From Sedimentisphaerales bacterium (lineage in GTDB: Bacteria > Planctomycetota > Phycisphaerae > Sedimentisphaerales > Anaerobacaceae), in the NCBI GenBank assembly GCA_035529405.1, contig DATKWV010000053.1, positions 1 to 36,857 on the forward strand: DNA of 36,857 bases, written 5' to 3'. A program made the position numbers and the translations under genes. Below are positions 5,714 through 20,956 of this stretch, one piece after another (position 1 is the stretch's first letter; each line of letters begins with the position of its first letter). Under the pieces are notes generated by a model. The model was not told the origin of the DNA. It did not search any database and saw only the letters and a program-made list of their open reading frames with translations.

Positions 5714-6343
5714 CTAAGGTATGGTTACGCCTTCCATCTCGCCTTCGCCGATTCTGATGGTGGATTTTATTTTTTGGCCGTTTCTGATTATGTTTATTTT
5801 TACATCGGACTCGGGTCTTGCGCGGGCAACGATGGATTTAAAGTGTTTGAGGTTTTTGACTTTGTGGCCGTTGAACCGCTGGATACTGTCTCCGATTTGC
5901 AGGCCTGCCCTTTGGGCCCTGCCGCCGGCATATACCGCGTGCACAATTACGCTTGACTTGCCCTGCAGGGCCGCCGCTTCCAGAGCCAGGGGCTTGATTA
6001 AGACCTGCTTAACGGGAATACCTGCTGCCTGGGCCTTGCCCCAGTTGGCGCTGTAAAGCGGACAATCACGAATGTTGCACGTTCCCCGGCTGTCTAAGAA
6101 CCCCGGGCAGTATGGACAGCGGGTCAAAGCAACGCTCTGGATGCGGATACTTTCCGACACTGCCGGCTGTGTTGCAAAATCAACAGCATCGCCGGCAGAG
6201 AAGCTGGCTATTGCATACACAACGGAAATAACAATGACAATCGCCAGAATCCAGAGCTGGTTCTGTGTGTTTTCGAGGAAACAATCCCCGGGTAATGTCT
6301 CCTGGCGAACATCAGGGTGATTTTTGTTATGTCTGTGGTACAT
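5714..6343 (-). CDS. Membrane-anchored PDZ-domain protein with a four-Cys cluster. It sits in the MamP position but has no CXXCH.
   Basis: One TM (LWILAIVIVISVVYAIA), then CPYCPG-x9-CNIRDCP, then a PDZ domain (VIVHAVYAGGRAQRAGLQIGDSIQRFNGHKV...). The track ORF begins with TTG at 6373; the ATG at 6343 is preferred. Both overlap the upstream gene end. Confidence 0.7.
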   Translation of the reverse strand: MYHRHNKNHPDVRQETLPGDCFLENTQNQLWILAIVIVISVVYAIASFSAGDAVDFATQPAVSESIRIQSVALTRCPYCPGFLDSRGTCNIRDCPLYSANWGKAQAAGIPVKQVLIKPLALEAAALQGKSSVIVHAVYAGGRAQRAGLQIGDSIQRFNGHKVKNLKHFKSIVARARPESDVKINIIRNGQKIKSTIRIGEGEMEGVTIP

Positions 6344-7262
6344 AGGTCCGCGTTTGAACACTTTCTGCGGCAACGGTTTTTTTACGGCGGCCTGCAGCCG
6401 GCAGCAGCTGTACGGAGATTTGAGAAATATTTTTCATCTTTGTGTGCAAAACATTTTTAATTTCGCCGACTGTCTGCAGGGCGGTGCTCAAAGGCCAGTG
6501 ACGCGGCACCGACACGCTCATATCCACCAGCAGGCTTCGGCCGGCAAATCTCGCTGTGACGCGCTCGATACCGCCGACGCCATCGATATTGTCCATAAGG
6601 TCGCGTATGTGCGCCTCTTCTACCCGCAGAGACACGTCCATAAGCCCTTTTACAGCTTTCTTGATACCGTCGAAAGCCACCTTTATAATCAGAACGCAAA
6701 TGACAATCGACACAATATGGTCGAGCCTGGCCAGGCCTAAATTACTTCCCACTACCGCAACGATTACGGCCACAGAAGTACCGACATCCGCGCGGCTGAC
6801 CTGGGCGTTGGCCAGAATTGCCGCACTTGACAGTTTCTGGCCCGCACACCGGCCGTACTTGAATGCCATCTGATTGGCAATAATTGATATAACGGCAGCG
6901 AAAATGGCAATCAGTCTCGGGGGCCTTTCGGGCCCGACTATCATCATCTCGGCAAAAGCAAAAAACATATAAGCCACAGCCACAACCATAAGCAGCATGT
7001 TCACAACACCCGAAGCCAGAAACTCCACCTTGCCGTAACCGTAAGGAAATTTTTCGTCTGCGGCCCTTGAGGCCATTTTGAGACTGACCAGCACCGCGGC
7101 AGTAATGATAAAATTGGCCAGAGACTGAAAAGCATCCGTATGCAGAGACCTGCTGTTACTGAGAATCGCAAAGGAAAACTTCAGAAAAAAAAGGGCCAGA
7201 TTTATGGCCAGAATCGTCCATTCGACCCTTTTGCCGCACCGGATACAACGCTGAGAAATCAT
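6327..7262 (-). CDS. Cation diffusion facilitator (CDF) paralogue, MamB/MamM-like, with a non-canonical metal site
   Basis: Has an N-terminal CIRCGK, the EKFPYGYGKVEF motif, six TMs and a C-terminal cytoplasmic domain. The positions that carry the transport-site residues in the other two CDF copies read SLHTDAF and AQVSRAD here. Confidence 0.8.
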   Translation of the reverse strand: MISQRCIRCGKRVEWTILAINLALFFLKFSFAILSNSRSLHTDAFQSLANFIITAAVLVSLKMASRAADEKFPYGYGKVEFLASGVVNMLLMVVAVAYMFFAFAEMMIVGPERPPRLIAIFAAVISIIANQMAFKYGRCAGQKLSSAAILANAQVSRADVGTSVAVIVAVVGSNLGLARLDHIVSIVICVLIIKVAFDGIKKAVKGLMDVSLRVEEAHIRDLMDNIDGVGGIERVTARFAGRSLLVDMSVSVPRHWPLSTALQTVGEIKNVLHTKMKNISQISVQLLPAAGRRKKTVAAESVQTRTYVPQT

Positions 7263-9782: not shown

Positions 9783-10235
9783 TTACGCGCCGGCCGATTC
9801 GTCACCGGCTGCGACAAGTTCGGGCTTTTGTATTGCGATATTATCCCTGAATACGCTTGCAAGCAGGGCTTTTTCGTCGCTGGTGAGCGACTGGGCGCCT
9901 TTAAGGCAAGCCATTGCCTGCCACATATCTGCTTCGGTAACGGGTCCTGCTGCGCTAAGTGGGGTGATTTTCTTTTCGAGGGCCTGTATGGTCTCAGCCA
10001 TAATCTGCAGGCGGTGCTCAAGCTTTGTCTGTGTAAGCTCGGCTTCCTGATGTACCAGGCGCATTAATTCCTGCGTAGTCAGCGACTGTTCAGTTTTCTT
10101 CGGCTGGCGGCGGGGGTGGAATTTCACAGTGGATTGCCTGACCGCTTTCTGCGCCGAGCCGAACAGGCTGAAACCGCCGCCAATAACCTTTCCCATCCCG
10201 CAGGCAAAATTACGACAAATATTGTTAAAACTCAT
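9783..10235 (-). CDS. Hypothetical protein, no family recognised
   Basis: GGGAG lies 5 nt upstream of the ATG. The 150-aa product has an N-terminal Gly/Cys-rich segment and then a helical region. It is co-directional inside the cluster. Confidence 0.55.
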   Translation of the reverse strand: MSFNNICRNFACGMGKVIGGGFSLFGSAQKAVRQSTVKFHPRRQPKKTEQSLTTQELMRLVHQEAELTQTKLEHRLQIMAETIQALEKKITPLSAAGPVTEADMWQAMACLKGAQSLTSDEKALLASVFRDNIAIQKPELVAAGDESAGA

Positions 10236-10255
10236 TTCAACTCCCGCTGCACCAG

Positions 10256-10615
10256 TTAAAGGTTCTCAAGTACACGCCGATATACATCGGGCATCTTCAT
10301 TGGGCCTGATTGGGCCTGCGCTTTTGCTACCAGCTGTTCTGCTATTTTGCCGAGTTCGTTCTTGAGCGCCTGTCGCTTTTCCGGGCCGGCGCTTCTTAGC
10401 CTGGCTGCCAAAGAAACAATTTTAGTCATCTGGGCCAAAGTAGCCGCATTGCACACTTTTTCAACTTCCGGTCTTACGACATCTTCAAGCTTGCGGTCTT
10501 TGGTTAATTGTCTGATAAACTCGCTTTCCGAATCGGCGGTTTCCAAGACCTTAATCGCCTCTTGTGTAAGCCAGGATATTAGTTTTTGTTTTAACGGGTT
10601 TACTGCCATAAGCAC
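10256..10615 (-). CDS. Hypothetical soluble helical protein, no family recognised
   Basis: The 119-aa ORF has plausible helical protein composition. The start is either GTG at 10615 or ATG at 10609. Confidence 0.5.
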   Translation of the reverse strand: MLMAVNPLKQKLISWLTQEAIKVLETADSESEFIRQLTKDRKLEDVVRPEVEKVCNAATLAQMTKIVSLAARLRSAGPEKRQALKNELGKIAEQLVAKAQAQSGPMKMPDVYRRVLENL

Positions 10616-10697: not shown

Positions 10698-10922
10698 TTA
10701 CCACTGCCGGGGGTCTTGGCCCTGGTACATTTGCCGCCCCCCCCATTCTTCAAGCACTTCCACACGCGCTTCCAAACGGCGCAGTTGAAGGTCGCGCTGC
10801 TGCTGCCTGTCCCGCATGTAAAGCAAAAGGACCGTAACGGCAATAATCGCAACGGCAATAACAAGCATTTTCTTATTCTTGGCGTCTAAAGTATTGTCCT
10901 GGCTCATAACTGCTGTCCCCAC
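10698..10922 (-). CDS. Small single-TM protein, paralogue A, with a YxRDRQQxR...VLEEWG juxtamembrane motif
   Basis: Sequence reads LVIAVAIIAVTVLLLYMRDRQQQRDLQLRRLEARVEVLEEWG. It is a paralogue of 11021..11251. The likely start is the ATG at 10907. Confidence 0.65.
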   Translation of the reverse strand: MGTAVMSQDNTLDAKNKKMLVIAVAIIAVTVLLLYMRDRQQQRDLQLRRLEARVEVLEEWGGRQMYQGQDPRQW

Positions 10923-11020
10923 TGATTGATTTCAAAAACGTTCTGCGACTATTTTTAATTACATGTGTAAATTCCAGGCGCATTACCGCCGCCCGTATCG
11001 CGTAGCCGACGCTGCCGAGG

Positions 11021-11251
11021 TCAGAGAATCTGGTCGCCCTGGGCCTGCGGGGTATTGGTCTGCTGGTTTTGCGGCGGTCCCCATTCTTCCAGGACATCGA
11101 CCTGCCTGTCAAGACGGCGTAAATCAAGTTCACGTTTCTGCTGCCTGTCACGGAAGTAGAAAAAGACTATAATCATCACTACAACCGTAACGGCAATAAT
11201 CAGAACGTTATTTTTTCTGCCTTCGGATACCTCTTCGTTTGGCTTAATCAT
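11021..11251 (-). CDS. Small single-TM protein, paralogue B, with the same motif
   Basis: GAAAGGA lies 9 nt upstream of the ATG. Sequence reads LIIAVTVVVMIIVFFYFRDRQQKRELDLRRLDRQVDVLEEWG. Confidence 0.7.
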   Translation of the reverse strand: MIKPNEEVSEGRKNNVLIIAVTVVVMIIVFFYFRDRQQKRELDLRRLDRQVDVLEEWGPPQNQQTNTPQAQGDQIL

Positions 11252-11269: not shown

Positions 11270-11503
11270 TTACCTGTCAGCCGCGGCCCTGGCAGCCGAT
11301 TCATTGGTTCTGCTTGCGGTTTTCCAGGCATCGTACATCGACCAGGCCATCACGGCCACCAGCCCGATGCCGTAAGTAAATAATCCCAGCACAACTCCGA
11401 TTACCAGAATAACCAGCCCTTTTATTACCCGGCCAAGGTACATATGGCCGGTCCCCAAAAACACAAGATTAAGCAGACAGGCAAGTGTGGGGTCTTTGCG
11501 CAT
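11270..11503 (-). CDS. Small two-TM membrane protein (TM2-like, LGTGHMYLG motif)
   Basis: A perfect AGGAGG lies 6 nt upstream of the ATG at 11503. The longer track ORF starting at 11545 would overlap the upstream gene. Confidence 0.65.
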   Translation of the reverse strand: MRKDPTLACLLNLVFLGTGHMYLGRVIKGLVILVIGVVLGLFTYGIGLVAVMAWSMYDAWKTASRTNESAARAAADR

Positions 11504-11516
11504 ACTTTTCCTCCTT

Positions 11517-11807
11517 TCAATCCTTGAGTTTTTCATCCTCGTCATACGAAACTACTGCAGGGTGTTTAAGTTCGTCTATTTCTCTTTCCATGCGTCGAAT
11601 TGTCTCTTTCATCTTCGACTGTTTGACTAAACCCAGAACCGACGAAATTACCATTCCCACCAAAAGCGAAAGCAATATGATGATAATCAGCGGCACCTGC
11701 TGGGCCTGCCAGCTGAGAAACTGCAGGGATACTGGATTGGGATTCTGTATGGTCACCAGTATAAGTGCCAGCGCAACCAACAATATAATAATCAGCTGTT
11801 TCTGCAT
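11517..11807 (-). CDS. LapA/DUF1049-like small inner-membrane protein
   Basis: AAGGAGG lies 5 nt upstream of the ATG. There are two TMs flanking the NPNPVSLQFLSWQ motif, then a charged C-terminal helix. Confidence 0.65.
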   Translation of the reverse strand: MQKQLIIILLVALALILVTIQNPNPVSLQFLSWQAQQVPLIIIILLSLLVGMVISSVLGLVKQSKMKETIRRMEREIDELKHPAVVSYDEDEKLKD

Positions 11808-11822: not shown

Positions 11823-14429
11823 TTACCACCGATATATAACGCTTATGTAAATACTGGATATAACCAGGAAAATCAGCATTATGGGCAGGCCCAGATGCGC
11901 AAACTCATGAAAAGTCAGCCTTGCAGGGACCTGGCTGTCATCTTCAGCCGCCGACAACGGCCGGCCCTGTTCCTTAACGAATTTATCGAACAGCGTGGCG
12001 GTGACACTGCCGGCCGTTGCGCCGACCAGCGTGCCGCTGGAGCCGGCGCAGACTCCCAGTGAAAGCGACCACCAGTAAATATTATGGGGAGCCGCGCTTT
12101 TAAGCGCCATCACCACCGGCAGAAACAAGGCCGTGGTCGGGCCGGCATTGAGAAAACAGGTCACCAGTGCCGCCGCCCACATCAGCAAAAGACACAGTAC
12201 CAGCAGATTTCCGAAAGACAGGTGCGCGATGATATCCGATATATAACCAAGAAGCCCCGCTGCCTCCGCGGCCCCCACGAGCACGAAAAGGCCGGAGAAA
12301 AACAAAACATCACGGATACTGACTTTCTCGAGAAGTCTGAACGGCTCACATTCGCTGGCCGCCAGGGCGATAACTCCGCCGGCAAGAGCGATGATAGCCG
12401 GCGAGCAGCTCAGATAATCGGAAATCAAAAAGCCCACAATAACAATGCCTAAAATAACAAGACCCCTGTTCAGTGCGCCGGGGTTTTTAATGGTTGTGGG
12501 CAATGAGTGCTTGAGATTAGTGAAAAACCGGTCTTGGTCGTCAGTGCTGTCACCGGCCAACCGGTCAAAATCCGGGTCCGGCACCCGGCAATTGTCATAC
12601 TCATCAGGCCCTGCGGCCTCTAAAGGCCGGCTGTTTACCCTGCTTTTGGAACTTTTGAACAGGGAAGGCTTTGCGATGCGCAGGTACACCAGAAGAACAA
12701 ACAATTCCAGCAGACAAATCGGAAGCATATACGAGGTAAACTGGTAGAATGGCACGCCCGCCTCGGCGCCTATAATCATGTTGGGAAAATCGCCGACCAT
12801 GGTCGAAGCGCCGCCGAGATTGGAGGCAATAACCATACTGATTAAAAAAGGCCTGGCGTCAAAATTGAGATATTTCGATAATTTCAGCACCATCGGCGCC
12901 ATCAGCATAATGGTTGTAAGATTGTTGACTACCAGCGAAAAACAATACGTCACAAGGCAGAAAAGCCACATTACCTTCCACTTGTCGCCGCCGGTGGCAA
13001 TGGTTATCCTTTTGGCAAGGTACTCGAGAGCGCCGGCCTCGTCCAGCACGCCGGTAACCAGCTGCATTCCGACAATAAAACAAAGTACATCCAGCTTGGT
13101 CAACAGTGCCGAGGCGATGCGGTCCTGGTCGTAAAATCCGACATGGTAGCCCATGACAGCTATAACTATCGCGCCCAGAACAAACAGCACCACCCGGTCA
13201 AGGATGTTTCTGTACACTAAATAATAAATAAGGGCAAAGATAAGCAGAACCAGTACCACCTCAGCCAGAGAACCGCTGCCGGGTAAAAAGTAAACGGCCT
13301 TGGCCGCGTGCACCGTAAGCTGTTTTTCACGTCCCTCTCGCAGCACGGTCAGCTTGATTTTTTTCGACTGACAAAGCTGCGGTGCGATTTTGTCAAAGAA
13401 GGCCCTGTCGGTTATTCTGTTGCCGTCGATGCTGACAATTACATCACCGCGTCTAAGCCCGGCATGTTCTGCGGGTGAATTGTTTTGTATATAGTTGACT
13501 ATTTCGCCGCGTCTTTGAGGTACTGTGCGCTGGGCAGCCACCACCGGATTGGCTGCCAGAAGCTCGGCGCCCAGCCACGTACATACAGGCTCGACAGGTC
13601 CCTGGCTCCATTGGGGGATGGGTAATGCTGAAAGGAAATTCTCCGCCTGGGCGGCACTGATTGCGTAGCTGAACGAAGCCGGCGCACCGGCCGGACGAAC
13701 AAAAGGCAGTGCCAGGGCGATTACATAGCCGTTTAAATCAACCAGCGGCCCGCCGGCGTTTTCAGCATCAAGGGATATATCCGTCTGGACCAAATCCCGA
13801 TACCTGGTTTTTTTGCCTGTGCGTGCGAGGTGTTCCTGCCCCGGGGCGTTCTCAACGACCAGCGTTTGACGTCTTTTGGTAATAGTGCCGGTTTTTGTCG
13901 TCAGCTCCCAGCCCGAAGGCGTTCTTTTGCCGCCTATGGCAACGATGCTGTCGCCTCTTTTAATGTGGGACAAATCCGCAAGTTGCGCAGGTTCGAATTC
14001 TTCAGTCCCTGCGGTATTACCGGCGCTTGCCTTAAGCAGCGTCAGGCTCGTCAGTTTGTCGCTGGTTATCACGCTGGCGTCGTACTTGTTATTTTTGTAG
14101 TCGATAACGTACAAAGACTGGATATCCGGTGTTAATGGTGCCGAGGTTAAGAGGAAACCGCCCCTATCGACAATCACCCCGCAGCCGATGACGCTTATGT
14201 GGGTGTCAATGCCCTGCTTCTTGACGGCCCACAGGCTCACCACGCTGGGACCGGCCTGTGCCAGGGCCGGTTCCGGATTACATACAAGTTGAGCCTCAGG
14301 CGGTTGAATCGACCGGGACCTGAACTGTTCCCACAACACCCACAGAACAATCAAAACGGCAAACAGCGACAGAACCGTTATCCACGATTTAATATATTTT
14401 GTCGCCATTGATTCCTTCAGGTTTCTCAT
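11823..14429 (-). CDS. mamO: MamO-like degenerate trypsin domain + PDZ + ArsB/NhaD/CitMHS-type (MamN-like) permease, fused in one 868-aa protein
   Basis: The HtrA-like fold is recognisable, but the catalytic positions read LLTSAPL (no His), SLTLLK (no Asp) and ENAGGPL (Ser to Ala). The PDZ has SPAEHAGLRRGDVIVSIDG. The C-terminal ~480 aa is polytopic, with SLVVNNLTTIMLMAP and ASNLGGASTMVGDFPN. Confidence 0.75.
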   Translation of the reverse strand: MRNLKESMATKYIKSWITVLSLFAVLIVLWVLWEQFRSRSIQPPEAQLVCNPEPALAQAGPSVVSLWAVKKQGIDTHISVIGCGVIVDRGGFLLTSAPLTPDIQSLYVIDYKNNKYDASVITSDKLTSLTLLKASAGNTAGTEEFEPAQLADLSHIKRGDSIVAIGGKRTPSGWELTTKTGTITKRRQTLVVENAPGQEHLARTGKKTRYRDLVQTDISLDAENAGGPLVDLNGYVIALALPFVRPAGAPASFSYAISAAQAENFLSALPIPQWSQGPVEPVCTWLGAELLAANPVVAAQRTVPQRRGEIVNYIQNNSPAEHAGLRRGDVIVSIDGNRITDRAFFDKIAPQLCQSKKIKLTVLREGREKQLTVHAAKAVYFLPGSGSLAEVVLVLLIFALIYYLVYRNILDRVVLFVLGAIVIAVMGYHVGFYDQDRIASALLTKLDVLCFIVGMQLVTGVLDEAGALEYLAKRITIATGGDKWKVMWLFCLVTYCFSLVVNNLTTIMLMAPMVLKLSKYLNFDARPFLISMVIASNLGGASTMVGDFPNMIIGAEAGVPFYQFTSYMLPICLLELFVLLVYLRIAKPSLFKSSKSRVNSRPLEAAGPDEYDNCRVPDPDFDRLAGDSTDDQDRFFTNLKHSLPTTIKNPGALNRGLVILGIVIVGFLISDYLSCSPAIIALAGGVIALAASECEPFRLLEKVSIRDVLFFSGLFVLVGAAEAAGLLGYISDIIAHLSFGNLLVLCLLLMWAAALVTCFLNAGPTTALFLPVVMALKSAAPHNIYWWSLSLGVCAGSSGTLVGATAGSVTATLFDKFVKEQGRPLSAAEDDSQVPARLTFHEFAHLGLPIMLIFLVISSIYISVIYRW

Positions 14430-17611: not shown

Positions 17612-20116
17612 CTAAGCTTTTATCCTCAGATTAAAGCGTTGTCCCTGGCGATAAACATTCAAAGATATATCTCTTTGCGGGTCTGTTTTATTCATGACCT
17701 TTATGAAATCGACGATTGTTTCGACCGGCTGGTTGCCGATTGCATTGATTACATCTCCTGCCAACAGCCCGGCAGCAGCAGCCTGGCCGGCACTTTCGGT
17801 AATAACAACCCCTTTTTCTCCTTCCGGAATATTGTAAGTCAATGCCAATACGGGCGATAATGCCTCCACCCCCATTCCCAGCACCTCAACTTCATCGGCT
17901 CCCACCTCTCCGCCGGCCAGCACACCCGACAATCCCGGCGGCTGGACATTCTGAGGATTGAACGGCTCGAAAGGCTGTGTGCCCAGTGCCAGTGCCTGTG
18001 CCTGAATTGCTGCCATACCCTGTGCTGCGGGGCCTTCGGTTTCCGGAAGGAAAAGGTCCCAGCCGGCCCCTTGTAAGCCAAACGGCCTGGCAATCAGCAC
18101 CGGTGAAATGCTTATGGTCTTGCCGTCTCGATAAATGGTCAGCTTCATTTGCTGGCCTGGTTTTTTCTTCACGAGCACCCCTTCAAGCATCGCACCATCC
18201 CTGATTGCGCGACCGTCGGCACGGATTATCACATCGCCTCTCTGCAGCCCGGCTATCCTGCACGGCGAATTACCGAAAACTTCCATCACAAGCGCCCCTC
18301 GCGCCATAGGCAGGCCCACAAAAGTTTTAATTTGCCTGTCAACCGCCCTGACCCGTATGCCAAGCCACGGTCCATCCTGCTGACCGGCCGCCTGACGGAA
18401 TTGTCCTGCCGGCGGACACCACGGATAAAGCCCCAGGCCCCGTCGCATTGCCTGACTTTCAGGACCAGCGGCTTGTTGCATCCAGCTTTGCGGCGGACAC
18501 CAGGGATTTAATCCAAGGCCCGGCTGCGCAGGGAGGTTCCCCGTATTAACGCCGCCCTGCAGCCCGCCTACCGGCGGACACCAGGGGTATAAACCTTTGC
18601 CTTTCTGTACGGAACCGCCCAACTGGTTACGGGCCCAATTCGGAGCACCGCGCAAAACTTCGGTCACATTGCTCGGGGCGGTTTCTATAAACTCGGGAAA
18701 CGCTGCTTTGGCAGGGTCAATCGGGCTGGCAAAACCGATACCGCTGAATGCCTGTGTCGGCGAATAAATTGCCGTGTTCAGCCCTATGACCTCACCATTG
18801 ACGTTCACAAGCGGCCCGCCGCTTGAGCCGGGATTGATGGGCGCATCGGTCTGGATAAAGTTCGTGAAGGTCTTGTTACCGACAGCGAGCGTGCGCTGGG
18901 TGTTGCTGATAATCCCGAACGTTACACTTTGCTGCAGGCCGTAGGGACTGCCGACGGCCAATACCTCATCCCCGACAGATACGGCACTGCTGTTGCCGAT
19001 TAGTGCAGGGCTGAACTGCTCGTTGCCTTTGGAAAGTATCTTCAGTATGGCGAAATCAAGCTCGGGGGCCTCGTCAATCAATTGGGCCGGATAAGTCTTC
19101 GTTACCTGCCCAACGCTGAGCGTAACGGTGATATCCCTGGCGCCGTGTACGACGTGATGATTAGTCAGAACATAGCCGTTGCGATTTACAATCACTCCGG
19201 AACCGCCCCTGCCAAGTGCCTGAAACTGCTTGTCATTCTGCGGCGGCAAACCGGGCGCATTGGCGATTGTCTGCCAGCCGGGAAGACACGCCCCGGGCAC
19301 ATTGGCCATTGTCTGCCAGCCGCCCGGCGGACAAACCCAGGGTGCGCCTTGCCTCATCATCTGCGTGCCGCAGCTCGGGCAGCCGAGAGTATAGGCTGGA
19401 ACGCCGGCTCGATGAGGCATACTGGTGCCGCAATTGGGACATAGCAGAAATCCGCCGGAGCCCATTCCCCAGCCGCCGTTCCGTTGGCCCCAGACATACT
19501 GTGCAGAACCTGCCGCTTCCGGCGACTGGTCTGCGGGCTGGTTTTGGCCGGCCATCGGCTGGCCGGCACCGGGTACAGGATAAGGTCCCGGCGCACCTTC
19601 GCGCATCATTTGCGTTCCGCAGTTCGGGCAATTGACGGTGTAGGCGGGGACAGCTCTTTGATGAGGTACCCTTGTGCCGCAATTTGGGCAGGCCAGGTAG
19701 CCGCCGGGGCCCATTCCCCAGCCGCCCATCCTGCCTGCACCGGCTGCAGGCTGCGCCTGCACAGCAGGGCCGCCCTGACTTATAAAACTGCTGCCTACGT
19801 TGACACTTACCACCGAAGGCGCAATTTTGGCAACGATGTTTTTGTACGACATCTGTTGCGAAAAGGCGACCGGCTGGCCCTGAAAGGCAGCCTGTAATTG
19901 CTGCTGGGCGCCAAAGCCCCACTCTTCGAGAACGCCGGCCTGGAGTTCGGCCTGGGCCTGACGAAGATTTCGCTGGCTCTGGCGGTCCCAGTAAACAACC
20001 GCAACTATAACCAGGATGATTAACGTTATTAATACTGTCAGCAGGTTCCTGTTGCTGCCTGGGCCGCTTTGTGAGTTATCCACTGTCGACTCATCGCCTT
20101 TGGTTTTCTCTTCCAT
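17612..20116 (-). CDS. Second HtrA-family serine protease (MamE paralogue without magnetochrome). It carries a duplicated zinc-ribbon insert, Cys-Pro repeats and two PDZ domains.
   Basis: LTNHHVV, DFAILK and GSSGGPL are intact. The track start is GTG at 20122; the ATG at 20116 has AAGGTGG about 7 nt upstream. Confidence 0.85.
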   Translation of the reverse strand: MEEKTKGDESTVDNSQSGPGSNRNLLTVLITLIILVIVAVVYWDRQSQRNLRQAQAELQAGVLEEWGFGAQQQLQAAFQGQPVAFSQQMSYKNIVAKIAPSVVSVNVGSSFISQGGPAVQAQPAAGAGRMGGWGMGPGGYLACPNCGTRVPHQRAVPAYTVNCPNCGTQMMREGAPGPYPVPGAGQPMAGQNQPADQSPEAAGSAQYVWGQRNGGWGMGSGGFLLCPNCGTSMPHRAGVPAYTLGCPSCGTQMMRQGAPWVCPPGGWQTMANVPGACLPGWQTIANAPGLPPQNDKQFQALGRGGSGVIVNRNGYVLTNHHVVHGARDITVTLSVGQVTKTYPAQLIDEAPELDFAILKILSKGNEQFSPALIGNSSAVSVGDEVLAVGSPYGLQQSVTFGIISNTQRTLAVGNKTFTNFIQTDAPINPGSSGGPLVNVNGEVIGLNTAIYSPTQAFSGIGFASPIDPAKAAFPEFIETAPSNVTEVLRGAPNWARNQLGGSVQKGKGLYPWCPPVGGLQGGVNTGNLPAQPGLGLNPWCPPQSWMQQAAGPESQAMRRGLGLYPWCPPAGQFRQAAGQQDGPWLGIRVRAVDRQIKTFVGLPMARGALVMEVFGNSPCRIAGLQRGDVIIRADGRAIRDGAMLEGVLVKKKPGQQMKLTIYRDGKTISISPVLIARPFGLQGAGWDLFLPETEGPAAQGMAAIQAQALALGTQPFEPFNPQNVQPPGLSGVLAGGEVGADEVEVLGMGVEALSPVLALTYNIPEGEKGVVITESAGQAAAAGLLAGDVINAIGNQPVETIVDFIKVMNKTDPQRDISLNVYRQGQRFNLRIKA
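18407..18601 (-). repeat. Three G-L-(Y/N)-P-W-C-P-P repeats between the trypsin domain and PDZ1
   Basis: The copies read KGKGLYPWCPP, GLGLNPWCPP and RGLGLYPWCPP. A fourth, related PWVCPP lies at 19325-19342. Confidence 0.85.
19337..19726 (-). repeat. Two copies of a ~45-aa unit, GGWGMGxGG(Y/F)LxCPNCGT-x17-CPxCGTQMMRxGAP, inside the protease gene
   Basis: Both copies were read directly from the translation. They lie between the first trypsin strand (APSVVSVNVG) and GSGVIVNRNGYVLTNHH. Confidence 0.85.
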
Positions 20117-20283
20117 ATCCACACCACCTTTCGACTTGGGGTCGATTTGTCAATTGCCGGTTTCGAACACCTTCAGGAAATTGCAAATCCTGACGGACCG
20201 CCGCGCCCGAACCGGCACATAGTCCACCGCCGGCCGGCCCTTTCAAAATCAGCTTTGCAATTATCCCGGGCAATCATTTTCAG

Positions 20284-20469
20284 CTACTGGGCTGCGTTTT
20301 GTCTGTATTTTCTTCTTATCGCAACGGCTATAGCCAGGGCCCCTCCGATGATAAGCCCCAGAATAACCAGTCCCTGGATGACTTCAACGGCAAACCACCA
20401 CCAGTAGGCCAGGGCCCAGACACCGACTGCCAGGGACACCGCACCGATAATTCCCAATCTCATTATCAT
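20284..20469 (-). CDS. mamI: MamI-like small two-TM protein, copy 1
   Basis: MRLGIIGAVSLAVGVWALAYWWWFAVEVIQGLVILGLIIGGALAIAVAI matches the remembered MamI pattern (G..A.ALG..G...WWW.V.EF.RG..P.AL..G..ALA.G). The likely start is the ATG at 20463. Confidence 0.6.
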   Translation of the reverse strand: MIMRLGIIGAVSLAVGVWALAYWWWFAVEVIQGLVILGLIIGGALAIAVAIRRKYRQNAAQ

Positions 20470-20764: not shown

Positions 20765-20956
20765 TCATTTTTCTTTTGCGGATGCTTTCTCTTTGCCCAT
20801 TCTTCTTAAAGCAACGGCTATAGCCAGAGCCCCGCCGAGCACAAGAATCAGGGCAATCAGCCCCTCAATTATCTCGATAATAAACCACCGGCAATACACC
20901 ATCGCCAGAATTCCAAGCCCCATCGCGATTGCTCCAATTATTCCCAATCTCATCAT
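20765..20956 (-). CDS. mamI: MamI-like small two-TM protein, copy 2
   Basis: It is a paralogue of 20284..20469 (MMRLGIIGAIAMGLGILAMVYCRWFIIEIIEGLIALILVLGGALAIAVALRR). Its start overlaps the mamQ-like stop (ATGA). Confidence 0.55.
   Translation of the reverse strand: MMRLGIIGAIAMGLGILAMVYCRWFIIEIIEGLIALILVLGGALAIAVALRRMGKEKASAKEK

Follow-up and report, generated by a model that had tools for sequence, protein, structure and literature searches.

Why do two tiny neighbouring genes carry what looks like the membrane anchor of a large protease encoded in the same gene cluster, and what might the small proteins do with it? The question arises in a window of 36,857 nt (the whole stretch of DNA analysed), where the minus strand carries nearly all long open reading frames between ~1600 and 22400, which together make up a magnetosome gene cluster (MGC). 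In transcription order, the cluster starts with a TPR MamA-like protein, LemA/MamQ, two MamI genes, and an 836-aa MamE-like HtrA protease; continues with a 684-aa MamE carrying three magnetochrome domains, a CDF transporter, an 868-aa protease-like/PDZ/MamN-like fusion, a LapA-domain protein, a TM2/DUF6677-like protein, the small open reading frames B and A, and two proteins without a known family; and closes with MamK, two more CDF transporters, a PDZ-only protein, a split ChrA, FeoB, and FeoA/DtxR. As judged by Pfam and NCBIfam matches and a residue check, the cluster is predicted to encode six PDZ domains and two HtrA domains with intact catalytic residues. The segment at 10698-11251 (minus strand) encodes A and B as tandem paralogues, in each of which a single transmembrane (TM) helix leads into a charged helix of 25 residues, closed by the LEEWG motif, and then a disordered tail. 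The features referred to below are as follows.

11021-11251, minus: small protein B, 76 aa; open reading frame, database entry P0001, ends GDQIL-COOH
11153-11206, minus: B TM helix, V16-F33; class consensus and per-column conservation
11078-11152, minus: B juxtamembrane helix, R34-G58 (RDRQQKRELDLRRLDRQVDVLEEWG); alignment and AF2
11024-11035, minus: B C-terminal motif D-Q-I-L-COOH, candidate PDZ ligand; motif from the family's C-termini, ligand role putative
10698-10907, minus: small protein A, 69 aa; open reading frame matching database entry P0002, ends PRQW-COOH
10815-10868, minus: A TM helix, M14-M31; alignment
10740-10814, minus: A juxtamembrane helix, R32-G56 (RDRQQQRDLQLRRLEARVEVLEEWG); alignment
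17612-20122, minus: MamE-like HtrA protease, 836 aa; Pfam and NCBIfam matches, catalytic H/D/S present
19991-20044, minus: protease TM helix of the shared module, L27-Y44; alignment
19916-19990, minus: protease juxtamembrane helix, W45-G69 (WDRQSQRNLRQAQAELQAGVLEEWG); alignment, BLASTP, and shuffle test
18107-18367, minus: protease PDZ1, candidate receptor for the B tail; Pfam PDZ_2, residues 586-672
17636-17890, minus: protease PDZ2, candidate receptor; Pfam PDZ_1/PDZ_6 and an NCBIfam MamP-like stretch, residues 742-829
20765-20956 and 20284-20469, minus: the two MamI genes, both genuine MamI

Three copies of one anchor module

The sequence-only reading had described two adjacent paralogues of ~70 aa in which a TM helix is followed by a shared motif, and both open reading frames and both strings (A, YMRDRQQQRDLQLRRLEARVEVLEEWG; B, YFRDRQQKRELDLRRLDRQVDVLEEWG) proved exact. 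B is bitopic and runs from an N-tail through the TM helix and the charged helix to EEWG and then into a Q/N/P-rich tail; its TM helix is rich in beta-branched residues and unusually conserved, with an IIAVTIVVL core. Both genes have a Shine-Dalgarno-like motif ~8 nt ahead of the ATG (AAAGGA lies upstream of that of B), operon-like spacing, and the strand of the rest of the cluster. For A, a GTG at 10922 would give 74 aa, and the ATG at 10907 is the more likely start because of its GGGGA Shine-Dalgarno-like motif ~8 nt upstream and the match to P0002. A search for transcript evidence returned DNA metagenome runs only and no RNA run.

The 836-aa protease consists, in order, of the N-terminal module, a large Cys-rich insert, the Ser-protease domain, three PWCPP repeats, and two PDZ domains, and it has a single hydrophobic segment. 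The shared module spans 19916-20044. It had been proposed that the protease starts with the same module at 19916-19993, and so it does: this interval maps to Y44-G69 (YWDRQSQRNLRQAQAELQAGVLEEWG), and V43, the first residue of the protease string originally quoted, to 19994-19996. The protease domain opens with the strand SYKNIVAKIAPSVVSV, ~23 residues past G69. The NCBIfam MamE model aligns with this protein only from residue 278, so the anchor region lies outside the described MamE family. The protease is without magnetochrome. Early in its protease domain are two CPxCG-x16-CPxCG knuckle pairs (19370-19690, minus), which are zinc-ribbon or rubredoxin-like, with Pfam DZR and NCBIfam rubrerythrin-like matches below threshold, and three GL(Y/N)PWCPP repeats lie between the protease domain and PDZ1 (18410-18586, minus); these would be Cys4 sites on the lumenal side. 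An orthologue in another cluster (L009, below) has both kinds of element, with one knuckle pair and two PWCPP repeats, and adds two magnetochromes.

The shared helix is rich in R, Q, E, and L, as would be expected if the similarity were chance between low-complexity charged coiled-coil sequences, and we addressed this objection directly. In composition-adjusted pairwise BLASTP, A and B matched each other with E=2e-19 (44% identity over 59 residues), and B (E=8e-12) and A (E=2e-9) each aligned without gaps to protease residues 16-69. For a shuffle test, we built an HMM of the 25-residue post-TM helix only, from the small proteins only, and compared scores with those of 5000 composition-preserving shuffles. 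The window's protease helix scored 11.3 bits, a value attained by 5/5000 shuffles; three orthologous protease helices scored 19-23 bits, attained by 0/5000. The copies are also collinear throughout, with N-[KR]-N, a TM of ~18-21 residues, D-R-Q-x-Q-R, ~13 residues, and (L/V)(L/W)EEWG-P. Chance is almost certainly the wrong explanation, effectively refuted by the shuffles, the BLAST E-values of 1e-9 to 1e-19, and the collinearity of TM, helix, and cap, and an exhaustive search recovers essentially only this family of A, B, and protease anchors. We conclude that the three copies are, as had been suggested, one TM-plus-juxtamembrane-helix module; their similarity exceeds composition, and they are true paralogues.

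Distribution, classes, and relatives of the module

A profile search of 5.8 billion proteins returned 78 small homologues of 49-123 aa, none with a Pfam domain; those few that bear a name derive from Planctomycetota MAGs. In an exhaustive HMMER scan, only 63 of 1.84 billion cluster representatives matched at E<=1e-3, and about ten of these are the N-termini of MamE-like proteases; one match, P0135, was judged a spurious repeat match. We fetched thirteen loci, twelve longer ones (L001-L012) and a 2.1-kb contig (L013). The longer loci are syntenic MGCs or MGC fragments, 12/12 of them with syntenic MGC genes, and those of the twelve with a taxon label are labelled Planctomycetota, Phycisphaerae, or Pirellulales. 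A profile search with the protease N-terminus found only truncated E-class fragments from Planctomycetota and no relatives in other phyla. P0073, from the 'Desulfobulbaceae' MAG contig L013, was not accepted as a member outside Planctomycetota because the 2.1-kb contig has no informative neighbours. The A/B family is confined to Planctomycetota magnetosome gene clusters. The worry that related clusters might lack the motif falls away, since the module recurs in the related syntenic MGCs that were fetched.

By alignment, the module falls into three classes, named E, B, and A.

Class E (protease N-terminus): consensus NRN-LITILIALIILVVVAVIY-WDRQxQRNFxQAQAEIQxxLLEEWG-PQAQQQ, with the first strand of the protease domain ~20 residues later; present at the start of the protease in each of the nine loci covering its N-terminus (L001-L003, L005-L007, L009, L011, and the window)
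Class B: consensus NxN-IIIAVTIVVLAVIFMFF-RDRQQKRxLQLxRLDTQMDVWEEWG-PPQQN..., then a Q/N/P/G-rich linker; present in the window, L001-L007, L009, and, in divergent form, L012; absent from L011, with only a tail remnant in L008
Class A: consensus ...LIIAVTVVVL..IFMYF-RDRQQQRxxELRRLEKRVELLEEWG-LPRQN..., with variable C-termini, often W-COOH or QWPPEGGLKFLRGQR; present in the window, L001-L005, L008, and L010; absent from L006, L009, L011, and L012

In the window, L001-L007, and L009, B occupies the same syntenic position, following the TM2-like gene. Common to all three classes are the N-[KR]-N, the beta-branched TM, and exactly two patches, DRQxQR next to the membrane and (L/V)(L/W)EEWG-P closing the helix; the sequence between the patches differs by class. 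Some A or B copies have lost the W of LEEWG and read LLKERG (L001), LEELG (L004, L010), or TWEDLR (L005). The A and B helices have a clean a/d hydrophobic stripe (L-L-V/M-L/W); that of E runs in another register, which speaks against a simple symmetric coiled coil. The family consensus for the end of B, drawn from the C-termini of about 90 B-class sequences, is [GDE]-[KR]-[IV]-[LF]-COOH; counted by eye, about 28/63 representatives at 50% identity are B-class and end in [IV][LF]-COOH. Behind a linker of about 15-36 residues, the motif ([KR][IV][LF]) is conserved more strongly than the rest of the otherwise variable tail, and it is kept in the most divergent members (VIVL, AVVF, GRIL).

Several loci depart from the common arrangement. 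L011 (10359-10640) and L012 (53-633) represent a divergent lineage in which the module is retained in the protease (YMDRQRQRELQLREFSIQADVMREWDG); between its TM2-like and CDF genes L011 lacks any small gene, and L012 has a single B-like gene ending in VIVL. At L008 667-1095, one open reading frame joins the first ~140 residues of the protease-like domain of the MamN fusion to a B tail (...GGPQQNRQLNNTTGKSGEKIL), which is a large deletion or misassembly; class A alone is intact there. In P0141 (ENA contig, 1397 bp), the N-terminus of an E-class protein continues into an A-class gene read out of frame (CTFETGSNNMLLNC..., in comparison with the L001 frame), suggesting recombination or misassembly between paralogous modules. 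We also compared the protease and small-protein modules of L011/L012 with those of the window for co-variation within lineages, and no case for co-evolution emerged; the divergent protease P0132 simply resembles the consensus of the small proteins more closely (QRELQLR), and such short sequences cannot support that argument.

The surrounding genes show features of their own. The 868-aa protein (11823-14429, minus) has an HtrA-like domain with all catalytic residues replaced (H->A, D->S, S->A), one PDZ, and a MamN-like CitMHS permease (NCBIfam MamN, 1.7e-97), so that it reads as a MamN-type transporter joined to a MamO-like pseudo-protease; L001 and L002 keep its C-terminus, YRW-COOH. Downstream of this fusion, the LapA-domain (96 aa) and TM2/DUF6677-like (91 aa) genes, which overlap by 29 nt (11270-11807, minus) and always lie ahead of B, form with B and A a conserved block of small membrane proteins. 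Between A and MamK (9783-10615, minus) are a 119-aa and a 150-aa protein, without a Pfam or NCBIfam match and conserved in several planctomycete MGC loci (L003-L006, L008, L010). The 219-aa PDZ-only protein (5714-6373, minus) has no magnetochrome match in Pfam and lies beside the CDF pair and ChrA in L002, L005, L006, L008, L010, and L012.

The sequence-only reading knew of no named family for the module, and our Pfam, NCBIfam, and PDB searches, all negative, agree. Neither A nor B matched a Pfam or NCBIfam family at E<=0.01. When 44 family members were searched at E<=10, nothing rose above a curated threshold and no Mam model was among the matches listed; the Mam/Mms models (NCBIfam NF0409xx, Pfam MamI PF26391) gave no A/B match above the curated cut-off. 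The best sub-threshold matches were PspB (TIGR02976), FtsL (PF04999/TIGR02209), YajC, and LapA_dom (PF06305), at E 0.0026-0.02, with Peptidase_S49_N as a further weak one; we rejected identity with any of these, as the scores are far below curated cut-offs and the resemblance is only that of a TM followed by a charged helix. A PDB profile search returned only spurious TM or coiled-coil matches. A full-text literature search found no relevant paper on the LEEWG motif among those listed, and the literature searched on Planctomycetes MGCs treats core Mam proteins only. We conclude that A and B, together with the anchor module, are a real, conserved, and so far unnamed family.

Two kinds of small protein invite comparison. 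Like FtsB/FtsL/DivIC and PspB, which work as oligomerising adaptor subunits, A and B belong to a type of about 70-100 aa in which one TM continues into a short amphipathic helix; unlike them, they lie in another genomic context, and there is no significant sequence match, the best E-values being 0.01-0.02 and well short of the curated cut-offs. Like MamI, Mms6/Mms5/MamG/MamD, Mad, and Man proteins, they are short, lineage-restricted membrane proteins encoded in MGCs, but they match no NCBIfam Mam or Pfam MamI model, and they lack the LG-repeat and the acidic C-terminal mineral-binding segment that mark Mms6.

Orientation and possible roles of A and B

AF2, run on the family alignment, modelled B residues 5-56 as one continuous helix comprising the TM and the charged helix to EEW, with a tail disordered from residue 59 (pLDDT <50 from residue 63). 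Orientation could be approached through the protease copy. Haem attachment in c-type cytochrome maturation requires export, and the L009 protease orthologue (800 aa) has, besides the module and just one hydrophobic segment, two CXXCH magnetochrome domains at its C-terminus, so its post-TM part must be exported. The post-TM part of class E, helix included, is therefore lumenal or periplasmic (N-in/C-out), and by homology A and B would take the same orientation.

The reading that we lean towards, tentatively, is that A and B are accessory subunits built on the anchor of the MamE-like protease, with the B tail as a tethered PDZ ligand. The anchor-coding segment would have been duplicated before the clusters diverged, giving the A, B, and E copies. 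A and B would each consist of a short cytoplasmic N-tail, the conserved TM, a helix of ~25 residues capped by EEWG-P, and a disordered Q/N/P-rich tail, and would pack against the protease anchor through the TM and the DRQxQR and (L/V)(L/W)EEWG patches. Such packing would place their flexible tails in the magnetosome lumen beside the protease PDZ domains, where the [KR]-[IV]-[LF]-COOH of B could act as a tethered ligand that sets protease activity, by analogy with the free hydrophobic C-termini that switch on DegS or hold substrates on DegP. Docking or co-assembly of the module is plausible; physical association with the protease, PDZ binding, and any regulatory effect are putative. Any PDZ link more likely runs through the [KR][IV][LF] C-terminus of class B than through LEEWG, which is internal and caps a helix and so would make a poor PDZ ligand.

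The comparison system is peptide activation of HtrA proteases through their PDZ domains (OMP YxF on DegS, product C-termini on DegP PDZ1, and peptides on MamE). MamE of Magnetospirillum and DegS of E. coli are likewise tethered by a single N-terminal TM ahead of an exported trypsin-like domain and PDZ, and the module is exactly that HtrA-type anchor in the 836-aa protease; we know of no free-standing paralogues of an HtrA anchor. Like the HtrA ligands, B carries a free hydrophobic C-terminus on a flexible segment, which, if B is oriented like the protease copy, would share the compartment of the PDZ domains, and it has the form of a C-terminal PDZ ligand, with a hydrophobic position 0 (and -1) and a predicted disordered tail. 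Unlike the YxF-COOH of the DegS type, B ends in K/R-I/V-L/F and A often in W, with variation, so that neither carries YxF. Unlike the stress signals of DegS and DegP, B would be a dedicated, membrane-tethered, genetically encoded subunit. The six PDZ domains and two intact HtrA domains of the cluster suit the accessory-subunit reading, as does Magnetospirillum MamE, which acts as a switch turned on by PDZ-bound peptides (bioRxiv 10.1101/047555). Its PDZ domains, however, preferred internal peptides and showed no preference for C-terminal ones, which counts against the B tail as ligand (bioRxiv 10.1101/047555). The L011 protease has the module with no small gene at the syntenic site, which counts against an obligate accessory role; together with the lack of A in L006, L009, L011, and L012, this means that the partnership is not obligate or that the genes lie elsewhere. 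The different register of the E stripe, the loss of the LEEWG tryptophan in some A or B copies, and the Lys/Arg count behind the small proteins' TM (below) also weigh against the accessory-subunit reading. The fuller proposal, that an HtrA-type protease spun off copies of its own anchor that dock back onto it and present a built-in C-terminal PDZ ligand, is rather doubtful.

Shared ancestry could also be the whole of the relationship. A and B would then be independent membrane components, forming homo- or hetero-oligomers like FtsB/FtsL or PspB and acting in membrane organisation or crystal growth, with no link to the protease or its PDZ domains. The clean a/d stripe that A and B have and the protease copy lacks would suit such oligomers, as would the weak sub-threshold resemblance to generic PspB, FtsL, YajC, and LapA_dom; the retention of the module by the L011 protease with no small gene fits as well, and lineage-specific small magnetosome proteins (Mms, Mad, Man) are common in other phyla. 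Ancestry by itself leaves unexplained why DRQxQR and LEEWG-P are kept in the anchor and in A and B while the middle drifts, and why the hydrophobic B C-terminus is invariant in a PDZ-rich cluster. We consider this account somewhat unlikely.

Alternatively, A and B could be substrates or decoys of the protease, with the B C-terminus as a degron for an HtrA PDZ and the tail or the region after LEEWG being cut; their turnover would time biomineralisation, or they would compete with a self-cleavage site next to the membrane in the protease. Magnetospirillum MamE is stimulated by substrate and cuts MamP beside its membrane anchor and MamO in a P/Q/T-rich linker, after GQPQTQTV and before AAGS (bioRxiv 10.1101/047555). 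The A and B tails are similarly P/Q/T/N-rich, and the module with a Q-rich linker also precedes the protease domain. The tails are, however, poorly conserved except for the last 3-4 residues, and a decoy would not need a conserved TM helix, so we regard this role as improbable.

The small proteins might instead sit the other way round (N-out/C-in), with the Arg-rich helix and tail engaging cytoplasmic MamA TPR, MamK, or HEAT-repeat proteins. A and B have 3-7 Lys/Arg in the 15 residues after the TM, more than in the N-flank in most members, a pattern that under the positive-inside rule, taken by itself, points to a cytoplasmic helix; genes for TPR and HEAT proteins lie nearby, and the architecture resembles that of PspB and LapA, whose post-TM helices are cytoplasmic. 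Among controls with 3-5 Lys/Arg after the TM, namely class E and the exported, haem-bearing 684-aa MamE (3 Arg), the latter violates the rule too, so charge is unreliable and not decisive here. The homologous protease module must be N-in/C-out, and the conserved N-[KR]-N just before the TM looks like the n-region of a signal anchor, making the reversed orientation quite improbable.

Finally, the module could be a signal that sorts proteins to the magnetosome membrane, being common to three otherwise different proteins of one organelle cluster. The second MamE has only a faint anchor match (E 0.1-0.3), and the protease-MamN fusion, both MamI, LemA/MamQ, all three CDF, the LapA-like, and the TM2-like proteins are without it; a general sorting signal is thus very unlikely.

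Implications for MamE control and for Planctomycetota clusters

The in vivo trigger of MamE is an open question (bioRxiv 10.1101/047555), and the uncultured, deep-branching lineage studied here appears to encode small proteins with the same anchor as the protease itself. With its conserved free hydrophobic C-terminus, B may be a dedicated MamE regulator, a concrete candidate testable in vitro, and this newly seen motif is the most testable handle on the system. If the proposal is true, a MamE-like protease that controls magnetosome biomineralisation would have an allosteric subunit that is genetically encoded and tethered to the membrane. Should the connection with the protease be only historical, A and B nonetheless form a new conserved accessory family with which to annotate such clusters. 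The three classes, at about 75 residues, provide a compact sequence marker for magnetosome clusters of the Planctomycetota type in metagenomes.
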